From: an uncultured Candidatus Saccharibacteria bacterium
Lineage (GTDB): Bacteria > Patescibacteriota > Saccharimonadia > Saccharimonadales > UBA4665
Reading direction: 5' to 3'
NCBI GenBank assembly: GCA_964647125.1
Contig: CAZYFP010000001.1
Span: 108,072-172,071 of the forward strand
DNA: 64,000 nucleotides
Part shown: positions 720 through 48,368 of the stretch, one piece after another
Layout: every line of letters starts with the position of its first letter
How positions within the stretch are numbered: position 1 is the first letter of the stretch
Program-made: the position numbers and the translations under genes
Notes under the pieces: model-generated
What the model saw: only the letters and a program-made list of their open reading frames with translations
What the model was told of the DNA's origin: nothing
The model's database searches: none

Positions 720-737
720 AAAGTACAAGGTGGGACT

Positions 738-1333: not shown

Positions 1334-1355
1334 TTTACATTGTTTCTCTCAAGCA

Positions 1356-1531: not shown

Positions 1532-1789
1532 CTACTTGTTCAGGCTCTCCTGGGGTGCGAACCGTTGGTTCAGTTCACCGATCGTGCCAAAGGTGCTGGC
1601 GTAGAAGAAGAACAGTGCGAAGCTGATCGGACCGAGCGCAAGCGCGGCAGTGAACAGCAGGGCTCCCCGCAGGGGGTTGTCCAGCATGTGCTGACGGTTG
1701 TTGCTGGCCATGTAGGCCGAGAAACCGATGAAGCACAGCAGTCCCATGACTACCCAGATGGTACCGAGTTCGACATCGAGCATGTACAT
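1532..1789 (-). CDS. small hypothetical membrane protein (85 aa; start may be the second ATG at 1783)
   Basis: Two to three hydrophobic segments (WVVMGLLCFIGFSAYM, GALLFTAALALGPISFALFFFYA). GGGAG lies just upstream of the start. It is the lone minus-strand ORF in a locally GC-rich patch. Confidence 0.45.
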   Translation of the reverse strand: MYMLDVELGTIWVVMGLLCFIGFSAYMASNNRQHMLDNPLRGALLFTAALALGPISFALFFFYASTFGTIGELNQRFAPQESLNK

Positions 1790-2022
1790 CTCCCTTGTGT
1801 GTTGTAGTGTTCAGTCGAGCAATTAGTTCGCTAGATTGCCTCTAGTAAACACGTTGCCAAACTGAACGCGCGCAGCACAAATACCGCCTCTCTGTAAAAG
1901 AGCTGGCTCTCGACCAATGGCTATGCTTACTGTTTGTTTGTAAGAACCTCTCACTGGGAAAGTCAACGTTGCATATAGTACGCCCGCTAGTGTGCGCTGT
2001 CAAGCACTGGTAGACTAAAGGT

Positions 2023-2619
2023 ATGCAAACCGTAGGAATTGATGAAGTTGGTAGGGGATGTTGGGCTGGCCCGCTCGTCGCCGGGGCGGTACTACTACCA
2101 TCAAATTTCACTCTAGAGGACGGACCTCTAGGTGGGGTATTGCGGCTGCGGGATAGTAAAAAATTGAGCAAAAAGCAGCGTGAACAATTAGCAATGATTA
2201 TTAATGAACACGCTGTTGCTATTGGCTTGGGGTGGGTATGGCCAGAGGCTATTGACAGTGGTGGTATTACTGCGGCTGTCAAGAGTGCCATGCAGCAAGC
2301 GTTGGCGGCAATCACAACTGAGTACGATGAAATTATTGTTGATGGCAATATAAATTATTTTGCGAACAATCCAAAAGCACGCGCAGTGATTAAGGCGGAC
2401 GATCTATACCCATCCGTCAGCGCCGCCAGTATTGTGGCCAAGGTCGCCCGTGACGCCTACATGGAACAAATCGCGCAGGAGTATCCAGAGTATGCTTTTC
2501 AGTCACATGTTGGTTACGGTACTGCAGCGCACATTGCAGCATTAAATACACTCGGTGTCACTGTCATCCACCGCAAAAGTTACAAGCCGATTCAAAAGCT
2601 AATGGAGGCAAGCACGTGA
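2023..2619 (+). CDS. rnhB: ribonuclease HII
   Basis: GIDEVGRGCWAGPLVAGAVLL N-terminal catalytic motif, DSKKLS, VDG...ADD..YPSVSAASIVAKV. The rplS-rnhB-yraN neighbourhood is typical. Confidence 0.9.
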   Translation: MQTVGIDEVGRGCWAGPLVAGAVLLPSNFTLEDGPLGGVLRLRDSKKLSKKQREQLAMIINEHAVAIGLGWVWPEAIDSGGITAAVKSAMQQALAAITTEYDEIIVDGNINYFANNPKARAVIKADDLYPSVSAASIVAKVARDAYMEQIAQEYPEYAFQSHVGYGTAAHIAALNTLGVTVIHRKSYKPIQKLMEAST

Positions 2620-2960
2620 CCACCACAAATACGGGCAAGAAGGCCGAACGGGCTGCCGGAAGTTATCTTGAGATGCGAGGGTTTACAATCTTGGAAATGA
2701 ACTGGCGTCGGCCACGTTGCGAGATAGACATTATTGCGCGTAAAGACAAGGTGATATACCTAGTTGAGGTGAAGTATCGTAAGAGCAACGATTACGGCAG
2801 TGGGCTAGAATATGTGACAGCTACCAAGCTTAGGCAAATGCGTTACGCGGCAGAAAGCTGGGTTGATGAGTCCAAATACGACGGCCAATACCAGCTTGCC
2901 GCAGTAGAAGTGGCAGGACCAGAATTTGCCATAGAGCATTTCATTGAAGATATTGTATAA
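2616..2960 (+). CDS. yraN: YraN-family (UPF0102) endonuclease-like protein
   Basis: GKKAERAAGSYLEMRGFTILEMNWRRPRCEIDIIARKDKVIYLVEVKYR matches the YraN pattern. It overlaps rnhB by 4 nt (GTGA). Confidence 0.8.
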   Translation: MTTTNTGKKAERAAGSYLEMRGFTILEMNWRRPRCEIDIIARKDKVIYLVEVKYRKSNDYGSGLEYVTATKLRQMRYAAESWVDESKYDGQYQLAAVEVAGPEFAIEHFIEDIV

Positions 2961-2988
2961 AATATATTAAAGTGGTATAATATATTTA

Positions 2989-3786
2989 ATGACAGAAAGC
3001 CATCGTATTGCAGAAGCGGCCATGGACTCGTTTTGGGAGTTCAAAGAACTCGGAGAGTTTGACCGTGGTTTTGAAATGCTGCGCAGCTTCGGACTTCGTC
3101 CTAATGTTGTTGAGTTTGTGACCTCGCCTGATTCGTACTATTTTCCTAATCAGCGCGGTAATCAACTGATTCGTCCAAAGTCAGTTAGCGACGAAAAAAT
3201 CCCGGTAGTTGCACTTGAAGTGGGCGAAAAATATTGGTTTGAGGCACCCGCACTACACAGTCTACAAAGAAATGCTCTGCTGTTGGCTGGTTGCACGCTC
3301 AATGATGTCGAACTGCTTGATCGAGAGTTTGCGGCGCACGGTACCAGTATTGAAGGTTCTGGTGGCGTCGCTGGCACTGGAAGTGTGGCTAGGAGTCTTG
3401 AGACATCACCAAAGCTACCAGAGAAACGTATTGAATCAGGACCACGGCTTATTTTGAACATTGACCGTACTGCTACGCCTGGACAGATAGATTTTAGTCC
3501 AATTGCGCTACACGAAATAACGCATGTTGCTCAAACATTGTCTGAGCCATTTTGGAAAGACGACTACTTACGTGCTGAGCTGGAAGCGTATGCGGTGCAG
3601 GCAACCTTGATGTTCTCGGACCGTGTGCCATACGATACGAGTATAGCCATGGCAGGCACAGTTGATAACTTTAGACGAAAGTGGCTAGGCAAGGATGAAT
3701 TTGAAACGACGCCAGACTTTGAACGCGCCTTTGCCCAGGATATGATCCTGTCAAAAGTCTACGGCCGACTCGGTCGCGCTAGTTAA
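2989..3786 (+). CDS. hypothetical protein with HExxH motif (possible zinc metallopeptidase-like)
   Basis: 265 aa containing ALHEITHVAQ, with a downstream ELEAYA that could supply the third ligand. TGgTATAAT lies 7 nt upstream of the ATG. Confidence 0.6.
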   Translation: MTESHRIAEAAMDSFWEFKELGEFDRGFEMLRSFGLRPNVVEFVTSPDSYYFPNQRGNQLIRPKSVSDEKIPVVALEVGEKYWFEAPALHSLQRNALLLAGCTLNDVELLDREFAAHGTSIEGSGGVAGTGSVARSLETSPKLPEKRIESGPRLILNIDRTATPGQIDFSPIALHEITHVAQTLSEPFWKDDYLRAELEAYAVQATLMFSDRVPYDTSIAMAGTVDNFRRKWLGKDEFETTPDFERAFAQDMILSKVYGRLGRAS

Positions 3787-6355
3787 TTTTGGCGTAGAAG
3801 GCTTTGAGGTTGGCTTCTTCGCGCTGTCGCCAGTCGGCCCGTGCGGCAATTTCGTTGATAGAAATCTTGATATTGCGAGCCATGGCCACATCACTCAGTT
3901 TTGGCTCAAAGAATTCAGTAAATTTCTGCTGCCAGTCAGGCGTGGACAGCGCACCGGCTGCATACCAGATGAAGTATTCCATGTGCTTGCCGCCGCCAAA
4001 CAGCTCCATCAAGTGATCCCATGAACTAACCATCCAGTCCCAGGCTAGCTGGCGGGTGTAGTAGTTGCGCATAAGATAGACAAACCAATGTGCTAGATCT
4101 TGCTGACGCACGACGCCAGTCTTAGGTGCCAGCCCCCATTCGATGAGTCGTTTTGCAACTGCCTCGTCACGAGTTGAACACAGTGCTGCTGCGATTGATT
4201 CCTGTATTTCAGAATTCTGAGTTGTGGCATATTCGTCCATGAGTTGATCAATTGCAGAGCTGTCACCGAAACGCACGGCTACGCCAGCAATGAGACTGCG
4301 AAGTTCTGCGGGTAGATCGGCAGCGTTGCCGGCCTTTTTATACAGGTCAAGCGCAGTTTGGATAGCCTCAGGATTCTCTCCGGCGATGCTGAGCGCCAAA
4401 GCGGTGGTGCGGAGGTGCTTGGTATTTGGATCATCATTGGGCTGATCTTCCCAGCCTAGTTTGCTGTACCAGTGGCTTGATAGCTTTGCCTTGAGCTGCT
4501 TGATCTGTGCTTCGACGGTTGTATCACCGTCTGTCAGTGTCTGGCTTTGACTGATTGCTCGCACCAGCATAGTCCAAACGGCATCTCGCGGTTCCTCGCC
4601 ACACAGCTCGACTAATTCAAGCGCCTCAACCAGTGATAGTTCACCATGGCGACACAATAACAACATGTCGTTTAGTAGGTTGATTCGTTCCATCGAGTCG
4701 ACTGAGCGGTCTGCGACTTTGGCATACAGTCGCTTGCGTGGCTGCTCGTCCTGGTAGTAAGTGACGTAGTGCCCAGTGCCATGTGCGTTAAACATCGGCA
4801 GGTCTGTTCCGGCGTAGGCAATAGTCGCCTCACGGGTGTCGAGAATTTCAAGTGGCAAGCCTACATCTGCCAGAAGTGGTACCGGCCACAGCGATTCTTT
4901 GTCTTCGCTATCAAGCAAAAAGCGCTCTTGCGACAGGTGTAGTGTGTTGTCGTCTATGCGCTTGACGCTCAACATTGGCATGCCAGATTTGAGAATCCAG
5001 GGTGTCATTAACTGCTCTATGTCTTGCTTGCCGACAGCGCCAAACGCCTGCCACAGGTCATTTCGAGTAGCGTTCTTGTAGGGGAATTGCTCAAAGTAGT
5101 GCTTCAAGCCAGCCCGGAAGGTGTCTTCGCCAATGTAGTCGTAGAGCATGTTGAGCACTCGGGCGCCCTTGCCGTACACGATGGATGGGTCAAACAGGCT
5201 CGAGATTTCATCTGGGTGATTCACCTCAACACTTACGGATTGGACGTCCTTGTAAATATCACGGTTTGATGCGCCAAGTGCACGACTGGTAGCAAATTCT
5301 TCCCACTGTTGCCAGTCTGGGTGCAAGCGATCTGGTGCGAGATTTTCCATGATTGATGCAAAACTTTCGTTGAGCCACAGATCATCCCACCACTTCATAG
5401 TGACCAAATTACCGAACCACTGGTGCGATAGTTCGTGTGCAACAACCAGGGATATTAACTGTTCTCCAGAGATAGAACGGTTGGTTGGGTCGGACAGCAT
5501 GCCAACTTCTCGGAATGTAACCAGTCCCCAGTTTTCCATGGCAAGACTGTCAAAATCGGGCAGGGCAACTTGGTCAAACTTGCTAAGCGGGAATGGCACA
5601 CCAAAATAATCATTAAAAAAGTCGAGGTAGGCAACAGCCTCATCATTCGCAAATTGTAAGTGCGAGGTCTGCTGGGCGACCGTGGCATAGCTTGATACTG
5701 TTACGCCATCTTTCGTCTTTGCTGATATGCCGTGCATTTCACCGTACACAAACGCTAGTAAGTAGGTGCTCATACGGGGTGATACGTCGAATGACGTAAT
5801 GCGTCTGCCGTCTTGTTCGTGGCTGCTAATTTCTGGCGTATTGCTGAGCGAAATGCCGTCAGCTGGCGTATTAAGTGTTAGGGCAAACGTTGCTTTGGCT
5901 TCGGGCTCATCAATGCAGGGAAACGCTTCGCGAGCGTGGTGGCTTTCGAACTGCGTGGCAATTAACTTCTTGTCTTCGCCATTGTGTTTGAAGTAGCACG
6001 GATATACGCCGTGCATTGGGTCGGTAATATTGCCACGAAACTCGAGCCGTATCTCGTATTCGCCTGGATATAGCATTTCGTCACAGTGCAACCGAACCTC
6101 GTCGTATGATTTCTGAGGGTTTATACGCGAAACTACAAAATCTTTGGCGCCCTTTTTGTCGGTGCGCCGAAGGCGGGCTGCGTAAACGTCAAGTCCTTTT
6201 TGGTGAAAGGTAATACGCTGGCTGGGGCGGCCAACTTTTTTACCGGTAATAACTACGCTGCCACGAAATGTCATTTCGTCCGGATACAGCTCGTAAGCCA
6301 TCGTGTAGTTAGTAGGTTGGAATTGCTCGAATAGTCGTGTAACGGATTTGCTCAT
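3779..6355 (-). CDS. pepN: aminopeptidase N (M1 family)
   Basis: 858 aa with the exopeptidase motif LAMENWG and the zincin motif VVAHELSHQWFGNLVTMKWWDDLWLNESFA (HExxH-X18-E). Confidence 0.92.
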   Translation of the reverse strand: MSKSVTRLFEQFQPTNYTMAYELYPDEMTFRGSVVITGKKVGRPSQRITFHQKGLDVYAARLRRTDKKGAKDFVVSRINPQKSYDEVRLHCDEMLYPGEYEIRLEFRGNITDPMHGVYPCYFKHNGEDKKLIATQFESHHAREAFPCIDEPEAKATFALTLNTPADGISLSNTPEISSHEQDGRRITSFDVSPRMSTYLLAFVYGEMHGISAKTKDGVTVSSYATVAQQTSHLQFANDEAVAYLDFFNDYFGVPFPLSKFDQVALPDFDSLAMENWGLVTFREVGMLSDPTNRSISGEQLISLVVAHELSHQWFGNLVTMKWWDDLWLNESFASIMENLAPDRLHPDWQQWEEFATSRALGASNRDIYKDVQSVSVEVNHPDEISSLFDPSIVYGKGARVLNMLYDYIGEDTFRAGLKHYFEQFPYKNATRNDLWQAFGAVGKQDIEQLMTPWILKSGMPMLSVKRIDDNTLHLSQERFLLDSEDKESLWPVPLLADVGLPLEILDTREATIAYAGTDLPMFNAHGTGHYVTYYQDEQPRKRLYAKVADRSVDSMERINLLNDMLLLCRHGELSLVEALELVELCGEEPRDAVWTMLVRAISQSQTLTDGDTTVEAQIKQLKAKLSSHWYSKLGWEDQPNDDPNTKHLRTTALALSIAGENPEAIQTALDLYKKAGNAADLPAELRSLIAGVAVRFGDSSAIDQLMDEYATTQNSEIQESIAAALCSTRDEAVAKRLIEWGLAPKTGVVRQQDLAHWFVYLMRNYYTRQLAWDWMVSSWDHLMELFGGGKHMEYFIWYAAGALSTPDWQQKFTEFFEPKLSDVAMARNIKISINEIAARADWRQREEANLKAFYAKIN

Positions 6356-36700: not shown

Positions 36701-37541
36701 TACCGTTAACCTCTACGAAGATGGCGACCACTATGTCGTACAAGTTGCGGGTGACGGTAGTGAGGCTATCGAACTAGTCGTTGACAAACGAAATGTTCAC
36801 GTAGCTTCAGGTTCAGATGTTGCCGTTGGTGATGTCTTGGCAGCCAACGAAGACGGCTCATCACCACTGATCTCTCCTGTGGCAGGTGTCGTTGATGTTA
36901 GCAAGAAGAAGCTAGTCATCACCCCTGCAAGTAGTGTTAGCGCTCGTTACGAGATTCCTGGCTACAAGCAGATGATGGTCAAGGATGGTGACGTCGTGAC
37001 TGCTGGTCAGCGTCTCACTGGTGGTTCTATCAACCTCCAAGAGCTCATGCTGCTGCAGGGCGTAGAAGCTACTCAGCGCTACATCATGAACGAAATCCTG
37101 CACATCTTTGCTGGACAGGGTCAAAACATTGCAGATAAGCACCTTGAAATCATCGTGCACCAGATGTTTAGCCGCGTACAGATCGAAGACCAGGGTGATA
37201 GTGACTTTGTAACTGGTGATATCGTCAGCAAGCTAGCTGTAGCAAACGCCAACGAAGAATTGGCTGCTGCCGGTAAGCAACTTGTTGTTGCAAACCAGCT
37301 GCTACTCGGTATTACCAAGGCAAGTCTGGCAACCGACTCCTTCCTGAGTGCTGCCTCATTCCAGGACACTACTCGTGTACTGATTGCTGCCGCTACTAGT
37401 GGTAAGGTTGACAATTTGTACGGCCTCAAAGAAAACGTTATCTTGGGTCGCAAGATCCCAGTCGGAACTGGCTACAGTAAAGACGAAGATGACGCCGAGC
37501 TAGCCGACGAAGCTAGCGAAGAGCTCGTCGAAGCCGCCTAA
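33708..37541 (+). CDS. rpoC: DNA-directed RNA polymerase subunit beta'
   Basis: 1277 aa with the catalytic NADFDGDQMAVH, RAPSLHRLSIQAF and LLGKRVDYSGRSV. Its ATG overlaps the rpoB TAA by 1 nt. Confidence 0.97.
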   Translation: MRNYTNGADIAVFDAVRLAVASAGDILDWSYGEVTKPETINYRTQKPERDGLFCERIFGPVKDINPHDAKYKGVRSREAAVDKNGELVTKSIVRRERMGHINLAVPVAHIWFLRGTPSAMGLLLGLTVKSLERVAYFASYIVKSVDTDARDQLLTDKEAEFAAAKEAIKLRYEKEAEAKDANVKALAEMQTKETEEVTTEFELFKAQTTSLQKLGLLSETDYRALPDNLRALITVGMGGEALQNLLSEIDLKQLISDLSTEAEDAKGQRKKKLMKRLRLLESMDRAGIKPSSTCLSVLPVIPPDLRPMVQLTGGRFATSDLNDLYRRVINRNNRLKKLMDLNAPEVIRRNEQRMLQEAVDALIDNNSARSGRAVAATGQRRRLKSLSDLLKGKQGRFRQNLLGKRVDYSGRSVIVAGPELKIHQCGLPKMMALELFKPFVIGELIEQEHAHNIRSASRLIELGETVVWDALDKVIHGKYVLLNRAPSLHRLSIQAFQPVLIEGRAIQLHPLVCKGFNADFDGDQMAVHLPLSDKAQAEARDIMAANKNLLKPADGSPILHIEQDIVLGCYYLTYDRPGLSDEPAQVFSGIDEALMAYDGGSLMLQGRVRIPFRGETRETTLGRILFNETFPADFTFQDEPMTKKRLQKVMAAVHAQYGQEKTAEIADSLKEIGFQYATESGMSIGMDDFDKIIGMDAVISDGETRTAALSEQYEQGFITNDERSRLTVENWLKVEGKVQDLLADQMVNRDTSTAIAINSGARGNIRNLKDAVGMLGVMQDAGGSTIELPIKSGYIAGLDPLEYFTGTRGVRKALIDIALKTADAGYLTRRLVDVSQDVFTIEDAEGLDPGFATFRSDAAAIGVEYGTRLQGRFAAETIKGHVKAGELITAEIAAAIDADESIDGVKIMSVLSAISVKGTPRKSYGIDPATGELIADHHPIGVIAAQSIGEPGTQLSLDSKHRSGGALADETAQGLSRIEELFEVRQPKGQAYLTEIAGTVNLYEDGDHYVVQVAGDGSEAIELVVDKRNVHVASGSDVAVGDVLAANEDGSSPLISPVAGVVDVSKKKLVITPASSVSARYEIPGYKQMMVKDGDVVTAGQRLTGGSINLQELMLLQGVEATQRYIMNEILHIFAGQGQNIADKHLEIIVHQMFSRVQIEDQGDSDFVTGDIVSKLAVANANEELAAAGKQLVVANQLLLGITKASLATDSFLSAASFQDTTRVLIAAATSGKVDNLYGLKENVILGRKIPVGTGYSKDEDDAELADEASEELVEAA

Positions 37542-37561
37542 CCAGCGCTTCAGCAAAAGCA

Positions 37562-37592
37562 AAACCCGCCTTCGTAGCAGAGGCGGGTTTTT
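37562..37592 (+). terminator. rho-independent terminator after rpoC
   Basis: AAACCCGCCT-N9-AGGCGGGTTT followed by TT. Confidence 0.85.
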
Positions 37593-37602
37593 GGTACCCT
37601 CC

Positions 37603-37631
37603 TTGTATCTGTTGTAAAAATTTGATATAAT
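37603..37631 (+). promoter_or_regulatory. sigma70-like promoter for the rpsL operon
   Basis: TTGTAT, 17 nt spacer, TGaTATAAT (hexamer 37626-37631). Confidence 0.65.
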
Positions 37632-37709
37632 CGACAGGTCAATTTAAGTGATCTGAGCCGTGCGCGGCATTCGCATGCAGCAGTACGATCACACATCTAA
37701 GGAGATGTA

Positions 37710-38122
37710 ATGCCAACAATTAATCAATTGGTGCGCAAACCGCGCGCTAAAGCCAGTGACAAATCAAAGTCACCAGCCCTGCAACGTGTTGTAAACACGC
37801 TCAAGACTACCAACTACGAAAAAGCGTCGCCATTCAAGCGCGGTGTTTGTGTGAAGGTAACAACTAAGACTCCAAAAAAACCTAACTCGGCCCTCCGTAA
37901 GGTTGCACGTGTGCGCCTCACTAACGGTCAAGAAGTCTGGGCCTACATCGGTGGTGAAGGTCACAACCTACAAGAGCACGCCGCTGTACTCGTACGTGGT
38001 GGCCGCGTAAAGGATCTTCCTGGTGTCCGTTACCACATCGTACGTGGCGCACTTGATCTTCAGGGTGTTGCTAACCGCAAGCAAGGCCGCAGTAAGTACG
38101 GTGCCAAGAAGGAGAGCAAATA

Positions 38123-38123
<1 letters not shown>
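37710..38123 (+). CDS. rpsL: 30S ribosomal protein S12
   Basis: [12 protein letters not shown]... and [27 protein letters not shown]. Confidence 0.98.
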
Positions 38124-38602
<479 letters not shown>

Positions 38603-38604
38603 TT

Positions 38605-39042
38605 ATGGGACTCATGAGTATACGCGGTAATCGCCTCGACGACATCCAGGGCCAAATTTGGTATCCAGACACGGTCGGTAATCGTACTGAAGCTGCGCGT
38701 ATTTTCTCGCAACCTGGTTTTAGTGCACTCTACGATACGGTACTGGGCCAGACCGATTCGATAGTTGAAATATTTCAACTCAACAAAGCCATTCGAGGCG
38801 ATCGTGGCGTTAAAGAATATATTTCAGCTGACCGTGCAGGCATTGCTGCGCGTATGGACGATGAGCTGTACCAGATTCATTTGCCGATACACAGTTACCC
38901 GTTTGACATCAGCTCAATGGCTGTCAAAGAAGTGCTGTTGCCGCTCGATGAAACCGATCCATATAAGTACGGACCATTTGCTGGCCGCGTTGCCGTAGCC
39001 AAGGCAATCCAGGCGCATCTTTTAATTCCAGAACAATCATAA
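38605..39042 (+). CDS. hypothetical protein (145 aa) inserted between rpsG and fusA
   Basis: It starts 2 nt after the rpsG stop. It contains RTEAARIFSQPGFSALY and DPYKYG motifs shared with other small ORFs in the window. Confidence 0.55.
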   Translation: MGLMSIRGNRLDDIQGQIWYPDTVGNRTEAARIFSQPGFSALYDTVLGQTDSIVEIFQLNKAIRGDRGVKEYISADRAGIAARMDDELYQIHLPIHSYPFDISSMAVKEVLLPLDETDPYKYGPFAGRVAVAKAIQAHLLIPEQS

Positions 39043-39073
39043 TCAAATAACACCTAAATAGGGGACACACGTA

Positions 39074-41161
39074 ATGGCAGACAAAACAACACCAATGAAA
39101 GATATTCGTAACCTTGGTATTATCGCGCACATTGACGCCGGTAAAACTACAACTACCGAAGGCATCCTGTATCGCACAGGTTTATCTCACAAAATTGGTG
39201 CTGTGCATGAAGGTGAAACTACCACTGACTGGATGGCGCAAGAGCGCGAACGTGGTATTACCATTGTTGCTGCCTCTGTTACTTGTTTCTGGAAGGGTCA
39301 CCAGATCAACATTATCGATACCCCAGGTCACATCGACTTTACGGTCGAGGTAGAACGATCACTGCGTGTCCTCGATGGTGCTTGTGTGGTGTTTGACGGT
39401 AAAATGGGTGTTGAATCACAGTCTGAGACCGTGTGGCGTCAGGCTGACAAGTATGGCGTGCCTCGCGTGTGCTTTATTAACAAGATCAACCAAACCGGTG
39501 GTGACTTCTACAAATCACTCGAAAGCATCCACAACCGCCTGAGCAAGCGAGCATTCCCAATTCACTTGCCAATTGGCTTCGAGCAGAGCATTAACGGTAT
39601 CGTTGATCTCGTTGAGATGAAAGCCTTTACGTACACTGACTTCCACGATAAAGAGCTCGTAGAGGGTGAAATCCCAGCTGACATGATGGATCAGGTCAAG
39701 CGTGCACGTAGCTTGCTAATCGAAAACGCAGTTGCCGAAGACGAAGCTATGCTCGAAAAATATTTCGAAGTTGGCGAAGAGGGCCTGTCGGTTGCAGAAG
39801 TCAAACAAGCAATCCGTAGCGCCGTACTATCCGGTAAGTTCTTTGCGGTTACTGGTGGAGACGGTCGTGGCGTTATTGTTGAGAAGGTTCTCGACATGGT
39901 TAACGACTACCTGCCAAGCCCACTGGACGCTGGCTCTACTTGGGGTACGCACCCTAAAACTGGTGACGAAATTGAGCGCAAGCCAGATGTAAACGAACCA
40001 TTTGCTTCACTTGCTTTTAAGATTACAACTGACCCATTTGTGGGCAAGCTTGCGTACTTCCGCGTGTATTCCGGTAAGATTACCGCTGGTAGCTACGTAC
40101 TAAACAGTTCAACTGGTGAAAAGGAACGTGTTGGCCGTATTGTTCGTTTGCAGGCAGACAAGCGTGCTGACGTCACTGAAGTCGAAGCGGGTGATATTGC
40201 TGCCATCGTAGGCCTGAAAGGCACCACTACTGGTAACACGCTGTGTGACCTAAACAACCCAATCGTGCTTGAGAGCATTACGTTCCCAGAACCTCCAGTG
40301 TCGATTGCTATTGAGCCAAAGACCAAAGCCGACCAAGAAAAGATGAGTGTCGCACTGCAACGTCTTGCCGAAGAAGACCCGACCTTCCGTGTCCGTGTTG
40401 ATGAAGAGACCGCTCAGACGATTATTGCCGGTATGGGTGAGCTTCACCTTGAGATCCTAGTAGACCGCATGAAGCGCGAGTTTAACGTCGAGGCTAACAT
40501 TGGTCAGCCTCAGGTTGCCTACCGCGAAACCATCCGTAAAGATGCTGTCGAGGTTGAAGGTAAGTTTGTGCGCCAGAGTGGTGGTCGTGGACAGTTTGGC
40601 CACGTATGGCTACGCCTCAGTCAAAACGAGCAGGGTGCTGGTTTTGAGTTCATTAACTCTATCAAGGGTGGTGTCGTGCCGAGTGAGTACATCAAGCCTG
40701 TACAACAGGGTATCGAAGAAGCTATGAGCAACGGTGTTATCGCCGGCTACCCAGTAGTAGACATCAAGGCCGAACTATACGATGGTAGCTACCACGAAGT
40801 TGACTCCAGCGAAATGGCCTTTAACATTGCCGGTTCTATGGCGCTGCAGGCCGGTGTGAAGGCTGCATCGCCAACACTACTCGAGCCAGTCATGAAAGTG
40901 GTTGTAGTGACCCCAGAAGAGTTCATGGGTGACGTTATTGGCGACCTAAACTCCAAGCGTGGCCGTATCGAATCCATGGAAGACCTCGCCGCCGGCGTAA
41001 AGGAAATCACTGCTTTTGTACCACTAGGTGAAATGTTTGGTTACACAACCAATCTTCGCAGCAACACACAGGGTCGTGCCAGCTCAAGTATGGAGCTAGA
41101 CCACTACGCCGACGTACCAAGTCACGTAGCAGAAGCTATCATTGCAAAGAACGCAAAATAG
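39074..41161 (+). CDS. fusA: elongation factor G
   Basis: [28 protein letters not shown], and 695 aa with the typical domain order. Confidence 0.97.
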
Positions 41162-41177
41162 TCGCCAATATACCCTA

Positions 41178-41206
41178 TTGACTATAGTGCAATAAAGTGA
41201 TATCAT
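41178..41206 (+). promoter_or_regulatory. sigma70-like promoter directly abutting ORF 41214
   Basis: TTGACT (41178-41183), 17 nt spacer, TATCAT (41201-41206). The ATG lies 7 nt downstream. Confidence 0.55.
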
Positions 41207-41213
41207 ACTATAT

Positions 41214-41666
41214 ATGACATACGAAGATTCATCACGCCAAGTACCAAGTACCCGACCAGCTGGTTACGACACACCAACCGACTCACCAGATCCGACCTTT
41301 GTTAGTCGATCCGGAGTGGTTCGTGGCCGAATAGAAACATATTTTGAAGATAAAAACCCTCACTTTCCGGTTAGCCGCGCAACTCGAGCAGAAGCAATCC
41401 GTATAGCTAGCCAGCGCCCGGCGTCAGTCATTGTTGAGGCTATGCGAGCAGCCAATGCTGAATGGGTACAAGCATCACTAGATGCTGCACCGCTCAACTT
41501 TAGCGGTGGTCCCGACCCCGAAGGAGGTTCTGTACCTTATCAAGCGGCGCCTGTGATTCCCGCACAAAAGCAACATGTGGTTGACTTAATGCGTAACCAG
41601 GCTGAACTGTTTGGTGCAGCACTTGAAGTACGCCTTGATCAAGACCAGAACCCCTCAGCGTTCTAG
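41214..41666 (+). CDS. hypothetical protein (150 aa)
   Basis: Long ORF between fusA and tuf with its own promoter-like signal. It contains the RAEAIRIASQRPASVIVEAM motif. Confidence 0.55.
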   Translation: MTYEDSSRQVPSTRPAGYDTPTDSPDPTFVSRSGVVRGRIETYFEDKNPHFPVSRATRAEAIRIASQRPASVIVEAMRAANAEWVQASLDAAPLNFSGGPDPEGGSVPYQAAPVIPAQKQHVVDLMRNQAELFGAALEVRLDQDQNPSAF

Positions 41667-41731
41667 TAGTTGACAGCGGGTGTAGTACACCCAAAGTCAA
41701 GGTATGCCAGCGCTGTCGCTTGTAGATTCGA

Positions 41732-42106
41732 ATGACTGGTGCTATTACTAATAGTCATATGACATTACCTAAGCATGAAGTCAGCGCCGATAGCCAGTTG
41801 GCTTCACTTGCCGATTGTAGATCAGCGCTTGATAAGATTGATGGCGGATTGCTTGACTTACTGTTGGAGCGTGCGGAAGTGGCCATGCGTGTTGGTGAAA
41901 TTAAGCTCGAAACTGGTATGCCAGTGCGCGACACATCTCGTGAGATGCAGATCTTAGCGAATATCGCCGCCAGAGCCGAAGGTTCAACGCTGTCACCCCG
42001 GCATGCTGTCAACGTATTTAGTGGTATACTCTCTGTTTCGCGAGCTATTCAAGAGGCCTTGTTAGCCGAACAAAGCAACAAAACTAATCTTGACAGCACT
42101 GGCTAA
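41732..42106 (+). CDS. chorismate mutase, AroQ (type II) family, stand-alone
   Basis: LADCRSALDKIDGGLLDLLLERAEVAMRVGEIKLETGMPVRDTSREMQIL...VFSGILSVSRAIQ follows the CM_2 helical pattern (R..ID..D..L..LL..R......K......P..D..RE). Confidence 0.7.
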   Translation: MTGAITNSHMTLPKHEVSADSQLASLADCRSALDKIDGGLLDLLLERAEVAMRVGEIKLETGMPVRDTSREMQILANIAARAEGSTLSPRHAVNVFSGILSVSRAIQEALLAEQSNKTNLDSTG

Positions 42107-42146
42107 GTGGCTTGAAAAGTTAGTTATATAGGACTACGCTGATACC

Positions 42147-42422
42147 ATGAGCGCAGAACGGTATCCGGAAGTAGAACAAATTTCGGAAACAGATGAAATA
42201 GTACAAAAGCAGAATCGCTTTTTGGCAATGTATGATGGGCTTGAGGCCTGGTACGACGAGACGTCTCAACGCTGGAACCAAAGTGCGATTGTCGAGGCAT
42301 GGGACATGAGCCGCTTGCGAGCTCGCTGGCAGCAACTCGAAGAAGATCACGCCACGGCCAGACTTATCGGAGCAGTTCCAGACTTGCTGCATGCAGCGTT
42401 TTTTAGTGGAAACAAATCGTAG
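42147..42422 (+). CDS. hypothetical protein (91 aa)
   Basis: TTGAAA-N17-TACGCT-N6-ATG arrangement upstream. It contains the SQRWNQSAIVEAW motif. Confidence 0.5.
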   Translation: MSAERYPEVEQISETDEIVQKQNRFLAMYDGLEAWYDETSQRWNQSAIVEAWDMSRLRARWQQLEEDHATARLIGAVPDLLHAAFFSGNKS

Positions 42423-42536
42423 GATAACTACTTTACAAACCCTGGTGTCTTCTCTATACTAGCCGGGGTAACTCGTGTGAGTGGGTATTACTCGTGCGAA
42501 ACAAAATAAGTATTTAATTAAAGGAGTCATACTTAC

Positions 42537-43721
42537 ATGGCAGGAACATTTGACCGCAGCAAGCCTCACGTCAACGTTGGTACTATGGGCCACGTCGACC
42601 ACGGTAAAACAACTCTAACCGCAGCAATTACGACTGTACTCGCTAAGAAACTTCCTAGCGATGTTAACAAGCAGGTTGCTTACGACCAGATCGATAACGC
42701 ACCAGAAGAGAAGGCTCGTGGTATAACCATCGCTACTTCTCACCAGGAATACGAAAGCGAAAAGCGTCACTACGCTCACGTCGACATGCCTGGTCACGCC
42801 GACTACGTTAAGAACATGATCACCGGTGCTGCACAGATTGATGGCGCTATTCTTGTAGTTGCTGCCAATGATGGTCCATTGCCACAAACTCGTGAGCACG
42901 TACTACTTGCTCACCAGGTTGGTGTACCTAAGATCCTTGTCTTCCTAAACAAGATGGATCTTGCTGATCCTGAACTCGTTGAGCTCGTTGAAGAAGATAT
43001 TCGTGACCTACTAGAGAAGAACGGTTACGACCGCGAAGCTCCAATCATCAAGGGTTCTGCTACTAAGGCTCTCGAAGGCGACGCAGCTAACGAAGACGCT
43101 ATTATGGAACTTGTTGCAGCTATGGACGCATTTGTTGAAGAGCCAAAGCGCGACCTCGACAAGCCATTCCTAATGCCTATCGAAGACGTGTTCTCAATCA
43201 AGGGTCGTGGCACCGTTGCTACTGGCCGTGTTGAGACTGGTATCGTTAAGGTAAACGACGAAGTCGAAATCGTTGGTATCCGTGACACCAAGAAGTCAGT
43301 TGTAACTGGTATCGAAGCGTTCAAGAAGAGCCTAGACCAGGGTCAAGCCGGTGACAACGCTGGTATCCTGCTCCGAGGTATCGAGCGCGATGACATCGAG
43401 CGTGGTCAGGTGCTTGCTAAGCCAGGTACTATTACTCCTCACACCGAATTTGACGCTGAAGTCTACATCCTGACCAAGGAAGAAGGTGGTCGACACACTC
43501 CTTTCTTCAAGGGCTACAAGCCTCAGTTCTACTTCCGTACTACGGACGTAACTGGTGAAGTTGAACTTCCAGCCGACAAAGAAATGGTTATGCCTGGTGA
43601 TACCATCACCTTCAAGGTAAAACTACTCGCTCCTATCGCTATGGAGCAGGGTCTTAACTTCGCTATCCGCGAAGGTGGCCGAACCGTTGGTGCTGGTGTT
43701 GTTACCAAAATCACCAAATAA
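42537..43721 (+). CDS. tuf: elongation factor Tu
   Basis: [56 protein letters not shown]. Confidence 0.98.
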
Positions 43722-43736
43722 TCAGCTTTGATTGCA

Positions 43737-43761
43737 AAAAGCGCCCTTCGGGGCGTTTTTT
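43737..43761 (+). terminator. rho-independent terminator after tuf
   Basis: AAAAGCGCCC-TTCG-GGGCGTTTTTT. Confidence 0.88.
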
Positions 43762-43867
43762 GTTTGGGAAACATTCCGGATTGACCTCAGCGTGATCGCT
43801 TGACTTACGTTCTTGCCAGGCGTAGCGTAAAAATGAAGAACCTAAAAAACTTCAAATAGGAGAAACC

Positions 43868-44080
43868 ATGACAATGTCATACGAGGCACATCCGCTACAT
43901 CACGGCGGTGAGCCAGAGCTAACAGTGTTTTTTCGTGTGCCAAAAGATCTGACAGCCAATCAATATTCAGAATTATTGGCACGAACCGAAGAAGAAGTGA
44001 AACATCGCGAACGCGTTGCGGGCATTATACCGCTGGAGCGGGTCGTCTTTAGTGCACATGATAGCGAAAGCCAGCGCTAA
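43868..44080 (+). CDS. hypothetical protein (70 aa)
   Basis: AGGAGA RBS 4 nt upstream of the ATG, and TTGACT about 60 nt upstream. No motif is recognised. Confidence 0.45.
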   Translation: MTMSYEAHPLHHGGEPELTVFFRVPKDLTANQYSELLARTEEEVKHRERVAGIIPLERVVFSAHDSESQR

Positions 44081-44097
44081 ACTTGTATACTGGTGCT

Positions 44098-44499
44098 ATG
44101 AGTCAAGAAGAGACGGAACAGTTTGTAGATTATTACAAGTTATTTGATATCGAGCCTGCCGCCACGCTGGCGACTATTCGTACGCGGTATATTCGATTAG
44201 CGAAAGACAATCATCCTGATGTTGGTGGCTCAACAGCGGCCATGCAACGATTGAATACGGCATATAAAACCTTGGCAAACAGCACCTCACGTGCGGCTTA
44301 TGACATGTTGCATGGCCTGCACACTGGGCGTGATGGACAGCCAGTCTACCAGTACACTCAGGCACCTAGTAGCGCTAGCGGTGCAGTTTCAGACGACTAC
44401 GTTGACATGTTTATAGAGCAGCTTTACAACGAGCTATCTTCAATTAAAAAACAAAGCCAAAAGCAGAGTTTATTCCAGCGCTTGTTCGGCTCGGGGTAG
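44098..44499 (+). CDS. J-domain-only protein (DnaJ-like, 133 aa from ATG 44098; ORF track starts at TTG 44083)
   Basis: DYYKLFDIEPAATLATIRTRYIRLAKDNHPDVGG...LNTAYKTLANSTSRAAYD is a canonical J domain with the HPD tripeptide. There is no Gly/Phe or zinc-finger region. Confidence 0.75.
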   Translation: MSQEETEQFVDYYKLFDIEPAATLATIRTRYIRLAKDNHPDVGGSTAAMQRLNTAYKTLANSTSRAAYDMLHGLHTGRDGQPVYQYTQAPSSASGAVSDDYVDMFIEQLYNELSSIKKQSQKQSLFQRLFGSG

Positions 44500-45270
44500 C
44501 GGCTCGGCAAAAGGCTGCGAGTTTGCTGCGCTGCTGGTCAGCGTATCGACTGTGCGCGCTAGCTTACGACGTACAACTAGCCCAAAAGTCCCCGTTCGTA
44601 TGTGGCGCTCAATTCGGTCGGCTCTAGCTCGCAGCAGATCAGTGCGAGTATAAGCGATTTCGGTTGAGAAGTGATCTTTGATGTACTGCCAATCCATACG
44701 AGGCTGATCTGTTACAGAACATAATTTGGTGGCTAAACGAGCTAAACTGCTGCGAGCAGGCAAGTAGGTATCAATAGGCGCGAATACGGACCGGTGATCG
44801 GCTGTCATGAAGGCCCCAAAAGGCACATTAAGATTATTTGGTCTGCTGCCACAAACGAGCTGCTGAAACCTGCCGGTTTTAAGGTGGTCTGCTAGTTCGC
44901 TAACCGTTTGCCAGCCCAGCCAGTTGGTTGGCTCGGCAATTTCAACGCCAGAAAACGAACCTTTTCCCACCACAATCACATCACTTATGTGGGGGTTGGT
45001 CGCTATTTCCTTAAAATCAGTCAGTGTGGCATCAAGAGCAAGGTGTGGTGTTTTGCCTGTTTGTCGGCGGGTGTGGTCAACAAAACGAAGTGTTTGGGCT
45101 GCGAGATAGGCAAACGTTTCAACCTTTTCCGATTCGGCGTGACGTGCATGATCGTACGGCAGCACTATTGCTAGCTCGCCCTGGTTTGGCGGCACACTGA
45201 AGTGGGCATCCGCCTGTTGCTGATCCCATTTATCCAGAGCTGCTCGGAACTGCTGTCTATCGCTTGCCAT
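44470..45270 (-). CDS. hypothetical protein (266 aa), the only minus-strand gene inside the ribosomal supercluster
   Basis: Long ORF, convergent with the J-domain gene, with a 30 nt 3' overlap. An AT-rich divergent promoter region is shared with rpsJ. Confidence 0.55.
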   Translation of the reverse strand: MASDRQQFRAALDKWDQQQADAHFSVPPNQGELAIVLPYDHARHAESEKVETFAYLAAQTLRFVDHTRRQTGKTPHLALDATLTDFKEIATNPHISDVIVVGKGSFSGVEIAEPTNWLGWQTVSELADHLKTGRFQQLVCGSRPNNLNVPFGAFMTADHRSVFAPIDTYLPARSSLARLATKLCSVTDQPRMDWQYIKDHFSTEIAYTRTDLLRARADRIERHIRTGTFGLVVRRKLARTVDTLTSSAANSQPFAEPLPRAEQALE

Positions 45271-45378
45271 ATATAAAATAGTAGTATACTATAACTCTAC
45301 TAACAACATCTGTCGAGAACTCGTCCGGTCACTCATCACTCCGGAAGAGGTTACGACATAACAATAGGAGTATTACTC

Positions 45379-45720
45379 ATGGCTGACGCCAAAGCAACCA
45401 CACCAACACCAGATGTAAAACAGCGAATTCGTATTCGTTTGAAGGCATATGACCACAAGGTTATTGACCAGGCTGCCAAGCAGATCGTAGACACCGCGCT
45501 ACGTACTGGTGCGAGCCTAGCCGGTCCAATACCACTACCTACACGCAAGACTACCTTTACGGTCGTAAAAAGCCCTCACGTCTACAAAAAAGGTCGTGAG
45601 CAGTTTGAAATGCGCATCCACAAGCGCCTGATCGACGTCTTTGAGCCAACACCAAAGACTATCGACAGTCTGATGAATCTCAGCCTGCCAGCCGGCTGCG
45701 ACGTCGAAATCAAGATGTAA
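45379..45720 (+). CDS. rpsJ: 30S ribosomal protein S10
   Basis: [41 protein letters not shown]...RIHKRLIDV. Confidence 0.98.
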
Positions 45721-45727
45721 TACCCAC

Positions 45728-45751
45728 AAGCGCCCCGAAAGGGGCGTTTTT
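45728..45751 (+). terminator. rho-independent terminator immediately after rpsJ
   Basis: AAGCGCCCC-GAAA-GGGGCGTTTTT. Confidence 0.85.
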
Positions 45752-45768
45752 GATTAGGAGAACTGCTT

Positions 45769-46170
45769 ATGTCAAAAATACGAATCGCAGAAAATCACTT
45801 TGGGTATTTCATTGGTATCGAACCGCCCGTGCAAAATATTGCGCTCGAAAACCTGCCAGATCCGTACCGAGGCAACGGCGGTGCCGAAGCCTCAGGCTGG
45901 CCGTATTCCGCAGTTTTGAGCCAACGCGCAGGCAAGGAGCTCGTCTTGGGTATACTAAAAGATTCTTTAGTCTTGTCAGAAACAACATCCAGACGGCGGC
46001 AGATCGATGGTCAAGCCTTCTTACCGCAAGGCCTTGTCGACTACTTGCAGGAGTTGACCGGTTATTTGGAAGAGGTAGAATTTGACCCTGAACTATATGA
46101 AGTTTCACACACGGCAAATGGAGAGATTGAGTTTGTGGCTGCTCATGTTAGGGTGGCACGTGCCCAGTAA
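45769..46170 (+). CDS. hypothetical protein (133 aa)
   Basis: AGGAGA RBS 7 nt upstream. It contains PDPYRG and [14 protein letters not shown] motifs. Confidence 0.55.
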
Positions 46171-46184
46171 TCTGTGCTTTAATA

Positions 46185-46475
46185 GTGCTAATGGCTACAA
46201 AGAAAAAAACAGTTAAACGAAAACCAGCTAAAGTAACTCAGCCGAATGATGGTGTCTACCTACTCAAGTTGGTGCTGTATACGATTATTGGCACACAGTG
46301 GCTGTGGTTCGAGACTGATACAAGTTCTGTACCGATACCGATCGGACTGTTCCTGGGGCTGTTATTTGCTATGCATGAACACTTCCGCGTAGATCGCAAG
46401 ATTGAGTTTGCCGTATTGCTGGCTGCCATGCTAGCTGGCTTTATCGCTAAAGTCGGCTTGTTTATTGCTATCTAG
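46185..46475 (+). CDS. small hypothetical membrane protein (likely start ATG 46191)
   Basis: Lys-rich N-terminus followed by 2-3 TM segments (VYLLKLVLYTIIG; IPIGLFLGLLFAM; FAVLLAAMLAGFIAKVGLFIAI). TGcTTTAAT lies 7 nt upstream of ATG 46191. Confidence 0.5.
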   Translation: MLMATKKKTVKRKPAKVTQPNDGVYLLKLVLYTIIGTQWLWFETDTSSVPIPIGLFLGLLFAMHEHFRVDRKIEFAVLLAAMLAGFIAKVGLFIAI

Positions 46476-46521
46476 CTCATGCTTGCATCCAGGACGCTGG
46501 TAGCTTAGTATCTGGACAACT

Positions 46522-46917
46522 ATGGCATTTGAAGAGAAATCATCTAAGTACATTCGTGCCATCTCAATCGGGATGCTCGGCTATATCGGTTTGTGTACCG
46601 GGGTGGCGGTGTTTAGTGCTCCAGATAGCTCGTCGGTCGAGTCGTCGCAAGCTACAGAGCTTCAAACTTCGTCTGCCGAGTAAGATTCGGACGATGGCAT
46701 TACGTATGTAGCCGGTGCCGCACTTATTTGCTTGGGTGGAGTTGTGGCCTATGGCGCAATGCGAGGCCGTGATACATCAGTCCCAGTGGCCGTAAACACC
46801 GGTGGGCTGCACGATGCCATGCCGTTTGATCCCGACAGCGACCTTAGTTTTATACAGGTCACGACAGATATCTGGCGGACGTTTTCGCCAGACACTGGCC
46901 GGTTCAACGCAAAATAA
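46522..46917 (+). pseudogene. 131-codon frame for a two-TM protein, interrupted by one in-frame TAA (46681-46683); alternatively two tiny ORFs
   Basis: ATG 46522 opens MAFEEKSSKYIRAISIGMLGYIGLCTGVAVF...SSAE-stop. The same frame continues as DSDDGITYVAGAALICLGGVVAYGAM... to TAA 46917 (the ORF-track ORF 46732..46917 lies in this frame). Confidence 0.3.
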
Positions 46918-46995
46918 GCACTGTATTATTTGCAACATATTGACAGGAGTAGCGATTTGATGGTACCCTGTTATGGTATCAAAAGAAATCCTGTA

Positions 46996-47057
46996 CTTGA
47001 TGTGCATGGTAGGTCCAGCAATAACAGATGGAAACCACCAAGTCATCAAGCATTTTT
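46996..47057 (+). promoter_or_regulatory. long hairpin plus U-tract in the rplC leader (candidate attenuator)
   Basis: CTTGATG (46996-47002) pairs with CATCAAG (47044-47050), extended by TGGTaGGT/ACCACCA, and is followed by CATTTTTAT. It sits about 45 nt upstream of the rplC ATG. Confidence 0.5.
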
Positions 47058-47101
47058 ATGTCTGATAGGCAGAAGGTGGAACAGGGGTAAATGAGGACAC
47101 T

Positions 47102-47731
47102 ATGAAAGCATTAATCACACGAAAGGTCGGCATGACAAGCACCATCGCAGAAGACGGTGTTGTGACTGCTGTAACCTTGCTTTCCGCTAGTCCCTGCGTC
47201 GTAACGCAGGTCAAAACCAATGAAACCGATGGCTACACAGCTGTGCAGGTAGGTTTTGAAGAGGGAAAGACACAAAATACTAACAAAGCACAAACAGGCC
47301 ATTTCAAGGCTGCCGGTATGCTTCCGAAGATTATTCGCGAGTTCCGTGTTTCTGAAATCACCGAAGACCTCAAGGTTGGATCAACTATCAGCCCCGAGGT
47401 CTTTTCAGTTGGTGACGTTATTGACGCCACTGGCACTAGTAAAGGTAAGGGTTGGGCTGGCACAATTAAGCGCCACAACTTCCACCGTCAGCGCAAAACG
47501 CACGGTGGTAAGGGTAACACTCGAAAGCCAGGTTCAATTGGCTCGATGTACCCACAACACATTTTCAAGGGTAAAAAGATGGCCGGCCAGATGGGTCACG
47601 AGCAAGTTACGCTCAAAAACCTACGCGTGGCAATTGTTGACGTCGAAAACAGCATCATTGGTGTTGTTGGCGCGGTACCTGGTCCTAAGAAAGGTATCGT
47701 AATTATTAAGGAGGCGGTTAACCATGGCTAA
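47102..47731 (+). CDS. rplC: 50S ribosomal protein L3
   Basis: MKALITRKVGMTS... and ATGTSKGKGWAGTIKRHNF. Confidence 0.98.
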   Translation: MKALITRKVGMTSTIAEDGVVTAVTLLSASPCVVTQVKTNETDGYTAVQVGFEEGKTQNTNKAQTGHFKAAGMLPKIIREFRVSEITEDLKVGSTISPEVFSVGDVIDATGTSKGKGWAGTIKRHNFHRQRKTHGGKGNTRKPGSIGSMYPQHIFKGKKMAGQMGHEQVTLKNLRVAIVDVENSIIGVVGAVPGPKKGIVIIKEAVNHG

Positions 47732-48368
47732 TGCAGTAACTTACACCAAGTCTGGCACCAAGGCTACTACTGCCGCCAAACTAAGCAAAGATGTATTTGA
47801 AGTTGTTCCAACAACTCACGATCTGCTGAAGCAGGCCTACGTTGCCTACCTCAGCAATGGCCGTGAAAACCACGCCGTTACCAAGACTCGTGGTCTGGTA
47901 AGCGGTGGTGGTAAGAAGCCATGGAAGCAAAAAGGCACCGGCCGTGCACGTTTTGGTTCATCTCGTAACCCTATTTGGCGCGGTGGTGGCATTGCCTTTG
48001 GTCCTACTGGCCAAGAAAACTACACCAAGCAGCTAAACGTAAAGGCTAAGCGTCTGGCTATCCGTCAAGCCCTCAGCCTAGCAACGGCTAGCAAGAAAAT
48101 TGTTGTTATTGAAGAGCTAGTTAGCAAAGATGGCAAGACTGCCGAACTAGCAAAGACACTTGCAAAGATTGGTGCAACTCGCCGAACACTTATTGCCCTG
48201 GAGCACAAAACTCCCGAGCTGACACGTGCCGCAAGCAACTTGACCGACACTAAAGTAATACAGGCTACATACCTCAACGTCTACGACATCCTCAATGCCG
48301 ACACTATTGTTATGACAACTGCTGCCTTGGCCGTAGTAACTACCTGGCTTGAAGGAGGTACAAAGTAA
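47724..48368 (+). CDS. rplD: 50S ribosomal protein L4
   Basis: TKTRGLVSGGGKKPWKQKGTGRARFGS.RNPIWRGGG. Confidence 0.97.
   Translation: MANAVTYTKSGTKATTAAKLSKDVFEVVPTTHDLLKQAYVAYLSNGRENHAVTKTRGLVSGGGKKPWKQKGTGRARFGSSRNPIWRGGGIAFGPTGQENYTKQLNVKAKRLAIRQALSLATASKKIVVIEELVSKDGKTAELAKTLAKIGATRRTLIALEHKTPELTRAASNLTDTKVIQATYLNVYDILNADTIVMTTAALAVVTTWLEGGTK

Follow-up and report, generated by a model that had tools for sequence, protein, structure and literature searches.

Non-ribosomal genes occupy four junctions of the str-S10 region in the order Candidatus Saccharimonadales

Gene organization of the str-S10 region

In bacteria, few gene arrangements are as well conserved as the str and S10 clusters, which are widely used as markers in phylogenetics and binning. 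We analyzed this region in a 64,000-nt stretch of DNA from an uncultured Candidatus Saccharibacteria bacterium (assembly GCA_964647125.1, contig CAZYFP010000001.1, positions 108,072 to 172,071; hereafter, the window), in which non-ribosomal open reading frames (ORFs) lie at four junctions: rpsG|fusA, fusA|tuf, tuf|rpsJ, and rpsJ|rplC (junctions, or slots, 1 to 4, respectively; Table 1). A synteny comparison from rpsL to rplC, as proposed in an earlier note on this DNA, showed enlarged spacing at these four junctions in the majority of approximately 95 loci; the expansion characterizes the order Candidatus Saccharimonadales and is not peculiar to this genome.

Our gene map agreed with the earlier note on which junctions are occupied, although the number of inserts, which had been put at about 12, was 10 or 11. 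The description of the block from rplC to rpsI as compact was also borne out: its 19 genes are separated by gaps of -8 to +20 nt, with three spacers of 57-184 nt near secY and infA. The same was true of the tight coupling of ORF145 to rpsG. However, the promoter-like signals that had been assigned to individual inserts could not be upheld; our scan detected 11 sites, compared with 10.2 +/- 3.4 in shuffled sequences, which is the chance level, and of the three positions that had been named (41178, 42112, and 46175), only 41178 was recovered.

Table 1. Coordinates of genes and signals in the str-S10 region of the window
Feature	Position	Strand	Junction and remarks
rpsL	37710-38123	+	Start of the str operon
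rpsG	38123-38602	+	str operon
ORF145	38605-39042	+	Junction 1 (rpsG|fusA); 2 nt past the rpsG stop, 31 nt before fusA
fusA (EF-G)	39074-41161	+	94-95% identical to fusA of L103 and L105
ORF150	41214-41666	+	Junction 2 (fusA|tuf); orphan
Chorismate mutase domain protein (AroQ-type, stand-alone)	41732-42106	+	Junction 2; PF01817, 71.5 bits
ORF91	42147-42422	+	Junction 2; orphan
tuf (EF-Tu)	42537-43721	+	Followed by an intrinsic terminator at ~43737-43762 (gcgcccttcggggcgtttttt)
ORF70	43868-44080	+	Junction 3 (tuf|rpsJ); 2 nt 5' of the J-domain gene
J-domain-only protein	44083-44499	+	Junction 3; PF00226, 46.7 bits
ORF266	44470-45270	-	Junction 3; convergent with the J-domain gene (30-nt overlap), divergent from rpsJ
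rpsJ	45379-45720	+	Putative unit 45379..45751; terminator gcgccccgaaaggggcgttttt 8 nt past the stop codon
ORF133	45769-46170	+	Junction 4 (rpsJ|rplC); family of the closest clade
ORF96	46185-46475	+	Junction 4; three-helix membrane protein; probable start at 46191, giving 94 amino acids
ORF53 and ORF61	46522-46683 and 46732-46917	+	Junction 4; gene for two transmembrane helices with one in-frame TAA (46681-46683)
Promoter and structured leader	46918-47101	+	5' of rplC; TTGACA at 46931-46936, hairpin at 46996-47050, U-run
rplC	47102-47731	+	Start of the compact block that runs to rpsI

Distribution and contents of the expanded junctions

Two samples were compared with the window: 80 species-level loci, fetched by means of ORF96 (the membrane protein encoded at junction 4), and 19 relatives from GTDB. 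The relatives carry the names Candidatus Saccharibacteria or Saccharimonadales. Among the 80 loci, the gap exceeded 150 nt between rpsG and fusA in 31 of 38 cases, between fusA and tuf in 35 of the 45 correctly paired loci (7 cross-hits were set aside), and between tuf and rpsJ in 57 of 65. The gap between rpsJ and rplC exceeded 150 nt at all loci; with ORF96 present it was never shorter than 577 nt, and it measured at least 249 nt even in genomes that lack ORF96. The distance from rpsG to rpsJ in the 19 GTDB relatives ranged from 3.5 kb, a compact arrangement, to 20 kb, and where Saccharimonadales genomes are most compact, only 25-60 nt separate tuf from rpsJ.

The expanded spacers are filled with genes that differ from one genome to the next. 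Plus-strand ORFs cover 60-75% of the spacers longer than 200 nt, compared with 28-38% in shuffled sequences; 306 of the 369 clusters of junction ORFs are singletons, and each of the nearest relatives has a different subset of the inserts found in the window. When 146 representative junction ORFs were scanned against Pfam, the matches included NUDIX hydrolases, glycosyltransferases, an amylase, peptidase M29, pyridoxal phosphate-dependent enzymes, adenosine deaminase, and Maf/Ham1 proteins. The expansion of most of some 95 loci, the differing contents of near relatives, and the prevalence of singletons lend good support to the suggestion of the earlier note that the region is a hotspot for gene gain. 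Its other suggestion, selection for co-expression with the translation apparatus, is plausible for ORF96 and for the coupled ORF of slot 1, but not for the bulk of the accessory and orphan inserts.

Accessory content that varies between conserved core flanks is typical of integration hotspots, and sporadic genes, that for chorismate mutase among them, turn up in one and the same junction of distant genera. The inserts might have arrived on mobile elements or genomic islands aimed at conserved translation genes, but we consider this improbable. The window contains neither flanking direct or inverted repeats beyond matches of chance size nor a tRNA, and no phage (PHROG) or defence (PADLOC) families were found in it. 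Neither a transposase nor an integrase is present among the 25 families listed of the 54 Pfam families detected in the 146 junction ORFs, and the GC content and the GC content at third codon positions (GC3) of the inserts are native according to window composition and coding analysis. The recurrence of genes at the same junction could reflect homologous recombination across the flanks, and an exchange of inserts by recombination across these highly conserved sequences is possible.

Coding status of the inserts and integrity of the assembly

Most of the inserts are without database homologs or a Pfam family, the genome is a metagenome-type assembly of approximately 1.06 Mb in 31 contigs, and one frame contains an in-frame stop codon. 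These features would be expected if the inserts were spurious ORFs in degenerate spacers or if the metagenome-assembled genome had been misassembled at the junctions, two outcomes against which the earlier note had weighed its own proposal. Our results effectively refute both. A dicodon model trained on the genome's own long ORFs placed every insert at the 94th to 99.9th percentile of shadow ORFs and far above the alternative frames (ORF145, 99.8th; ORF150, 99.1st; ORF91, 97.9th; ORF70, 99th). Codon usage and GC3, compared with those of the genome, were native and coding-like. The ORF coverage of the spacers is about twice that of shuffled sequences, and confident folds were predicted for ORF145 and ORF96. 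Three contigs, assembled independently from three sequencing runs, match the window with 100% identity across 1.1-3.0 kb, the in-frame TAA included, and the same layout is common to independent assemblies from other samples.

The inserts also bear the marks of selection. In the closer relatives L101 to L105, which were recovered with the ORF96 protein and whose fusA and tuf genes are 92-95% identical to those of the window, syntenic homologs of several inserts are present. For inserts with homologs, nonsynonymous divergence (dN) exceeds that of the flanking genes by a factor of 5-150, and the ratio of nonsynonymous to synonymous divergence (dN/dS), where estimable, is 0.07-0.38, which indicates relaxed purifying selection on the inserts.

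Predicted operon boundaries and the predicted promoter and leader of rplC

Terminator-like hairpins with a U-run follow tuf at 57 of 78 loci and rpsJ at 50 of 97 loci, compared with a control rate of 4-16% after rpsG, fusA, ORF96, and rplC. In the window, textbook terminators were predicted after rpoC, tuf, and rpsJ. Because of the terminators after tuf and rpsJ and the separate promoter and leader of rplC, junctions 3 and 4 would be boundaries between transcription units in the order, so that only junctions 1 and 2 would interrupt a transcription unit. The view of the earlier note that genes were repeatedly inserted into a single string was thus overstated; it fits junctions 1 and 2, which lie inside the str operon, but not junctions 3 and 4. 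The rpsJ gene itself is probably a monocistronic unit, with a divergent promoter-like region on its 5' side and a terminator on its 3' side.

Two further features of these signals were observed. The terminators after tuf (43750-43772) and rpsJ (45741-45763) share a similar 23-nt sequence (GGGGCGTTTTT...GG.AAC) with 78% identity. At the head of the str operon, the rpoC-rpsL spacer (37542-37709) contains a strong terminator, an extended -10 promoter-like sequence, TGATATAAT (TGaTATAAT), and a structured leader before rpsL.

Approximately 185 nt on the 5' side of rplC are conserved in about 92 loci. This DNA contains a predicted promoter with the consensus TTGACA, an 18-nt spacer, and TGnTAcTCT, which was recognizable in 79 of the 92 loci; the promoter of the window is near-consensus, with TTGACA and TGgTACCCT at the same spacing. 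The leader that follows is predicted to form a long hairpin with conserved AGGTC, AACAGA, and GAAACC motifs and then an invariant U-run, T being invariant at positions 58-61 of the leader alignment, directly after the stem. The hairpin is supported by covariation, with compensatory changes in 12 of 18 pairs, although the four outermost pairs are fixed by the extraction pattern and carry no weight in this count. In the alignment, 92.8% of the cells are paired, compared with 80% after shuffling and 26-46% after sliding, and double changes were found in 91 cells, compared with 24 expected.

No Rfam 15 family matched within 37000-48000 at an expectation value (E) of 1 or less. A covariance model of the leader (R1) detected one copy per genome in 10 of the 15 sampled genomes of the order and yielded no matches in approximately 286 other Patescibacteria genomes; the predicted promoter and leader are restricted to the order Saccharimonadales. 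The hairpin lies between a conserved promoter and the start of rplC, and rplD, which encodes L4, is the second gene of the block. We propose that the leader is a candidate new ribosomal-protein autoregulatory attenuator. A minus-strand frame across this DNA (ORF90, 46777-47049) seemed to be conserved; its coding score was negative, and it was rejected as an artefact that arises from the conservation of the non-coding DNA of the promoter and leader.

Among known leaders, the most similar is the L4-responsive one of the Escherichia coli S10 operon (PMC3616713 and the work of Zengel and Lindahl cited therein). Both have a hairpin and a U-run in the 5' leader of an operon that encodes L4, and the Saccharimonadales leader resembles the L4/NusA attenuator; however, the predicted leader and promoter are placed before rplC instead of rpsJ, and the leader does not belong to that RNA family.

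Occupants of slots 2 to 4

The most constant resident is ORF96 in slot 4, a protein of 94 amino acids with a basic N-terminus and three predicted transmembrane helices. We found 43 homologs, together with 271 relatives in a collection of genome contigs, and the gene lies between rpsJ and rplC at all 75 loci that carry both ORF96 and rpsJ. Other families of Saccharimonadales have the gene as well. The motif H-[ED]-H-F-x-x-D-R-K-[IV]-E is invariant, 24 columns of the protein alignment (A1) are invariant, and dN/dS is 0.07. The AlphaFold2 (AF2) model has a mean predicted local distance difference test (pLDDT) score of 81.9; neither Pfam nor the PDB, the latter searched by both sequence and predicted fold, provided a match to ORF96.

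ORF133, which precedes ORF96, belongs to a family confined to the closest clade, with syntenic homologs of 34% identity in L102 to L105, and evolves rapidly (dN/dS of 0.38 between L103 and L105). Elsewhere, the most recurrent accessory gene between rpsJ and ORF96 encodes a NUDIX hydrolase of about 156 amino acids, which occurs at 14 loci across genera. The split frame downstream of ORF96 (ORF53 and ORF61) yields a read-through product with significant similarity to the 135-amino-acid product of the corresponding gene of L105 (z=9.4), and it is a nonsense-interrupted copy of a real gene; intact genes for 135-146 amino acids occupy this position in L103, L105, and L101. Three independent Logan contigs from three runs contain the identical TAA, so this is a genuine nonsense codon rather than an error of assembly. 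The gene is a pseudogene or has been split recently.

In slot 3, ORF70 has a syntenic homolog of 63% identity in L101. The J-domain protein exceeds the cut-off of PF00226 (27.8 bits) and has the HPD motif (DNHPDVGG), with neither a G/F nor a zinc-finger region, and it missed all of the DnaJ equivalog cut-offs; full-length homologs of 38-51% identity occur in several genera, some of them in the same neighborhood. In L105, a homolog of ORF266 with 37% identity occupies the matching position and strand, and other genomes have homologs of 27-33% identity elsewhere; searches of Pfam, the PDB, PADLOC, and PHROGs gave no match for ORF266. In L101 (GCA_965610545.1 contig, locus 311-5868), the closest locus by ORF96 (85% identity), genes for DUF58 and VWA-domain proteins lie on the 5' side of tuf in place of fusA, so that the str operon is broken differently there.

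Slot 2 contains two orphans on either side of a recognizable enzyme. The sole match to ORF150 among 5.8e9 proteins was ORF150 itself, and a 144-amino-acid ORF in the same slot of L103 is unrelated to it (z=0.2); by these comparisons, ORF150 is a true species-specific orphan. ORF91 had no homolog in 94 loci. The chorismate mutase domain matched positions 2-80 of the 80-position profile PF01817 (CM_2), far above its cut-off of 27 bits, and it remained below every NCBIfam equivalog cut-off (best score, 55.8 compared with 66.95). Neither chorismate synthase nor prephenate dehydratase was found in the genome, which is 99.8% complete; the predicted chorismate mutase is a pathway orphan and might act on host-derived chorismate. 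The enzyme is also encoded at the fusA|tuf junction of three other genera (L011, L061, and L082). For the orphan inserts as a group, searches of Pfam, NCBIfam, PHROGs, PADLOC, and PDB sequences returned nothing.

Slot 1 and the ancestry of the slot genes

The rpsG|fusA slot differs from the others in its regularity. A plus-strand ORF of 59-180 amino acids, nearly always single, was found in 37 of 50 genomes, and nine had an empty slot. The median start is 3 nt past the rpsG stop codon and the median end 18 nt before fusA. In the window, ORF145 has syntenic homologs of 30-39% identity in L103 and L105 and of 50% in L026, and its dN/dS is 0.12-0.21. Its family is narrow, with 17 representatives among 1.84e9 proteins. 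The AF2 model is confident (pLDDT, 84.6; predicted template modeling score (pTM), 0.82), and a structure search with the predicted fold gave no PDB match. In total, 42 slot-1 ORFs formed 30 clusters. No profile-level similarity was detected between the families of different clades (hhalign probabilities of 1.5% or less, with shallow profiles), and remote homology among them was set aside as a candidate. A paralogous relationship of ORF145, ORF150, and ORF133 was likewise rejected: ORF145 and ORF133 were aligned with an hhalign probability of 0.1% and an E of 0.5, and iterative searches with hidden Markov models never merged the families. A Cys-rich family of about 114 amino acids (CPTT-G..C ... 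C.G....CP) occupies the slot in other genera (L008, L011, L062, L086, and L093); it is as tightly packed as ORF145 and unrelated to it in sequence.

These data bear on the main alternative to gene turnover, namely descent of the slot genes, as positional orthologs, from a single ancestral gene per slot, kept for co-expression with the translation machinery and since diverged beyond recognition. That slot 1 of most genomes has a single ORF of similar size, tightly packed, is compatible with such descent. Moreover, the homologs of the closest clade are only 30-50% identical, compared with 92-95% for the flanking genes, so that similarity would vanish at family-level distances, and ORF96 is an example of an ancient slot resident. 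However, the hhalign comparisons between slot-1 families detected no similarity, the lengths of the ORFs vary threefold at their extremes, one family is Cys-rich, unlike ORF145, and the slot is empty in some genomes. In slots 2, 3, and 4a, unrelated enzymes (NUDIX, amylase, peptidase, and glycosyltransferases) occur in different genomes, which argues for true replacement or gain there. Common ancestry therefore fits slot 1 reasonably well but does not fit slots 2 to 4, and even for slot 1 we regard it as the less likely account.

Proposed permissive slots in and between translation operons

We favor the interpretation, with a probability of roughly 0.75, that the four junctions are permissive, strongly transcribed slots in which lineage-specific genes turn over or diverge rapidly, alongside a few fixed residents. 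The str-S10 region would then consist of separate transcription units with four slots, and not of a contiguous operon string. The str operon would run in the order rpsL, rpsG, slot 1, fusA, slot 2, and tuf and be closed by a terminator, with slot 3 beyond it; rpsJ would be a short unit by itself, in many cases delimited by a terminator; and slot 4 would hold the conserved ORF96, after which the promoter and the attenuator-like hairpin would start the rplC-to-rpsI block. The occupants of slots 1 and 2 are small, co-oriented, and tightly packed, and thus are presumably co-transcribed with the genes for S7, EF-G, and EF-Tu, the slot-1 ORF being positioned for translational coupling to rpsG. The predicted boundaries and the separate rplC promoter may remove the need for contiguity, and strong transcription may give immediate expression to any ORF that lands or arises in the slots. 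Slot genes other than ORF96 would be gained, lost, replaced, or changed past recognition over short evolutionary times.

Several points weigh against this interpretation. Replacement is not separable from extreme divergence of ancestral slot genes with profiles as shallow as these, and the functions of the inserts are limited to domain-level calls. The operon boundaries and co-transcription are read from sequence signals only, and promoter-like matches occur at the frequency expected by chance. As for the fixed resident, the frequency of ORF96 is not given by the 80 loci, since they were fetched by means of it, and the gene is absent from five members of the family (G005, G009, G010, G013, and G027). 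In addition, the rpsJ-rplC spacer of Patescibacteria outside the order, with a median of 159 nt, is longer than 500 nt in 10 of 60 cases, and the two genes are unlinked in 7 of 67; a loose rpsJ-rplC junction is thus sporadic in Patescibacteria and not unique to Saccharimonadales, although it is fixed in this order.

A more far-reaching proposal would combine these elements: the slots would be dedicated expression sites in translation operons; ORF145 and ORF96 would be lineage-specific partners of translation or secretion or abundant factors in host interaction; the rplC leader would be an L4 or L3 attenuator with an origin separate from that of the gammaproteobacterial S10 leader; and the slot-1 protein would be made at the level of ribosomal proteins and would diversify at a rate 10-150 times that of its neighbors. 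Taken as a whole, this proposal is speculative, and we consider it rather unlikely.

Comparison with known arrangements

The core gene order is the same as that of the E. coli str (rpsL-rpsG-fusA-tufA) and S10 (rpsJ-rplC-rplD) operons, in which tuf|rpsJ is likewise an operon boundary; in Saccharimonadales, however, rpsJ is detached and non-ribosomal genes are located at rpsG|fusA, fusA|tuf, and rpsJ|rplC. In archaea, cyanobacteria, and plastids, S10 is linked to tuf or EF-1alpha rather than to L3. Saccharimonadales resemble them in that rpsJ is apart from rplC and the large ribosomal-protein block starts at rplC, whereas most Saccharimonadales differ from them in having extra genes on both sides of rpsJ and a membrane-protein gene and a leader before rplC. 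Unrelated genes are also known between tufA and rpsJ in model bacteria, such as ybaC in Bacillus subtilis and bfr, bfd, and gsp genes in E. coli; junction 3 tolerates them because it is an operon boundary. Saccharimonadales differ from these cases in that the other three junctions are also occupied.

Chromosomal hotspots at which accessory genes collect between conserved core genes are a general concept, and the slots share with them fixed flanks, contents that differ between near relatives, and many orphans and miscellaneous enzymes. Unlike such hotspots, the slots have neither mobile machinery nor a compositional signal, they lie inside or between conserved translation operons, and slot 1 behaves as the place of a single, coupled gene. 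The orphans ORF150 and ORF91 and the narrow families of ORF145 and ORF133 are comparable to taxonomically restricted genes. ORF96 parallels secY of the spc operon as a membrane protein encoded within a ribosomal-protein cluster, but has no similarity to SecY, SecE, or SecG. The reorganization of the operons and the accessory-gene hotspot are of known kinds; the new elements are the ORF96 family and the predicted rplC leader RNA.

These findings suggest that the str and S10 clusters have been reorganized throughout an order of episymbionts with reduced genomes, with rpsJ isolated, the large ribosomal-protein block under a promoter and leader of its own, and genes turning over rapidly in the gaps. 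For annotation, they imply that slot ORFs are easily discarded as spurious. The region provides entry points to a candidate autoregulatory RNA, to a conserved small membrane protein among ribosomal genes, and to putatively highly expressed, hyper-divergent orphans, which may be connected with life as epibionts or with the de novo birth of genes.

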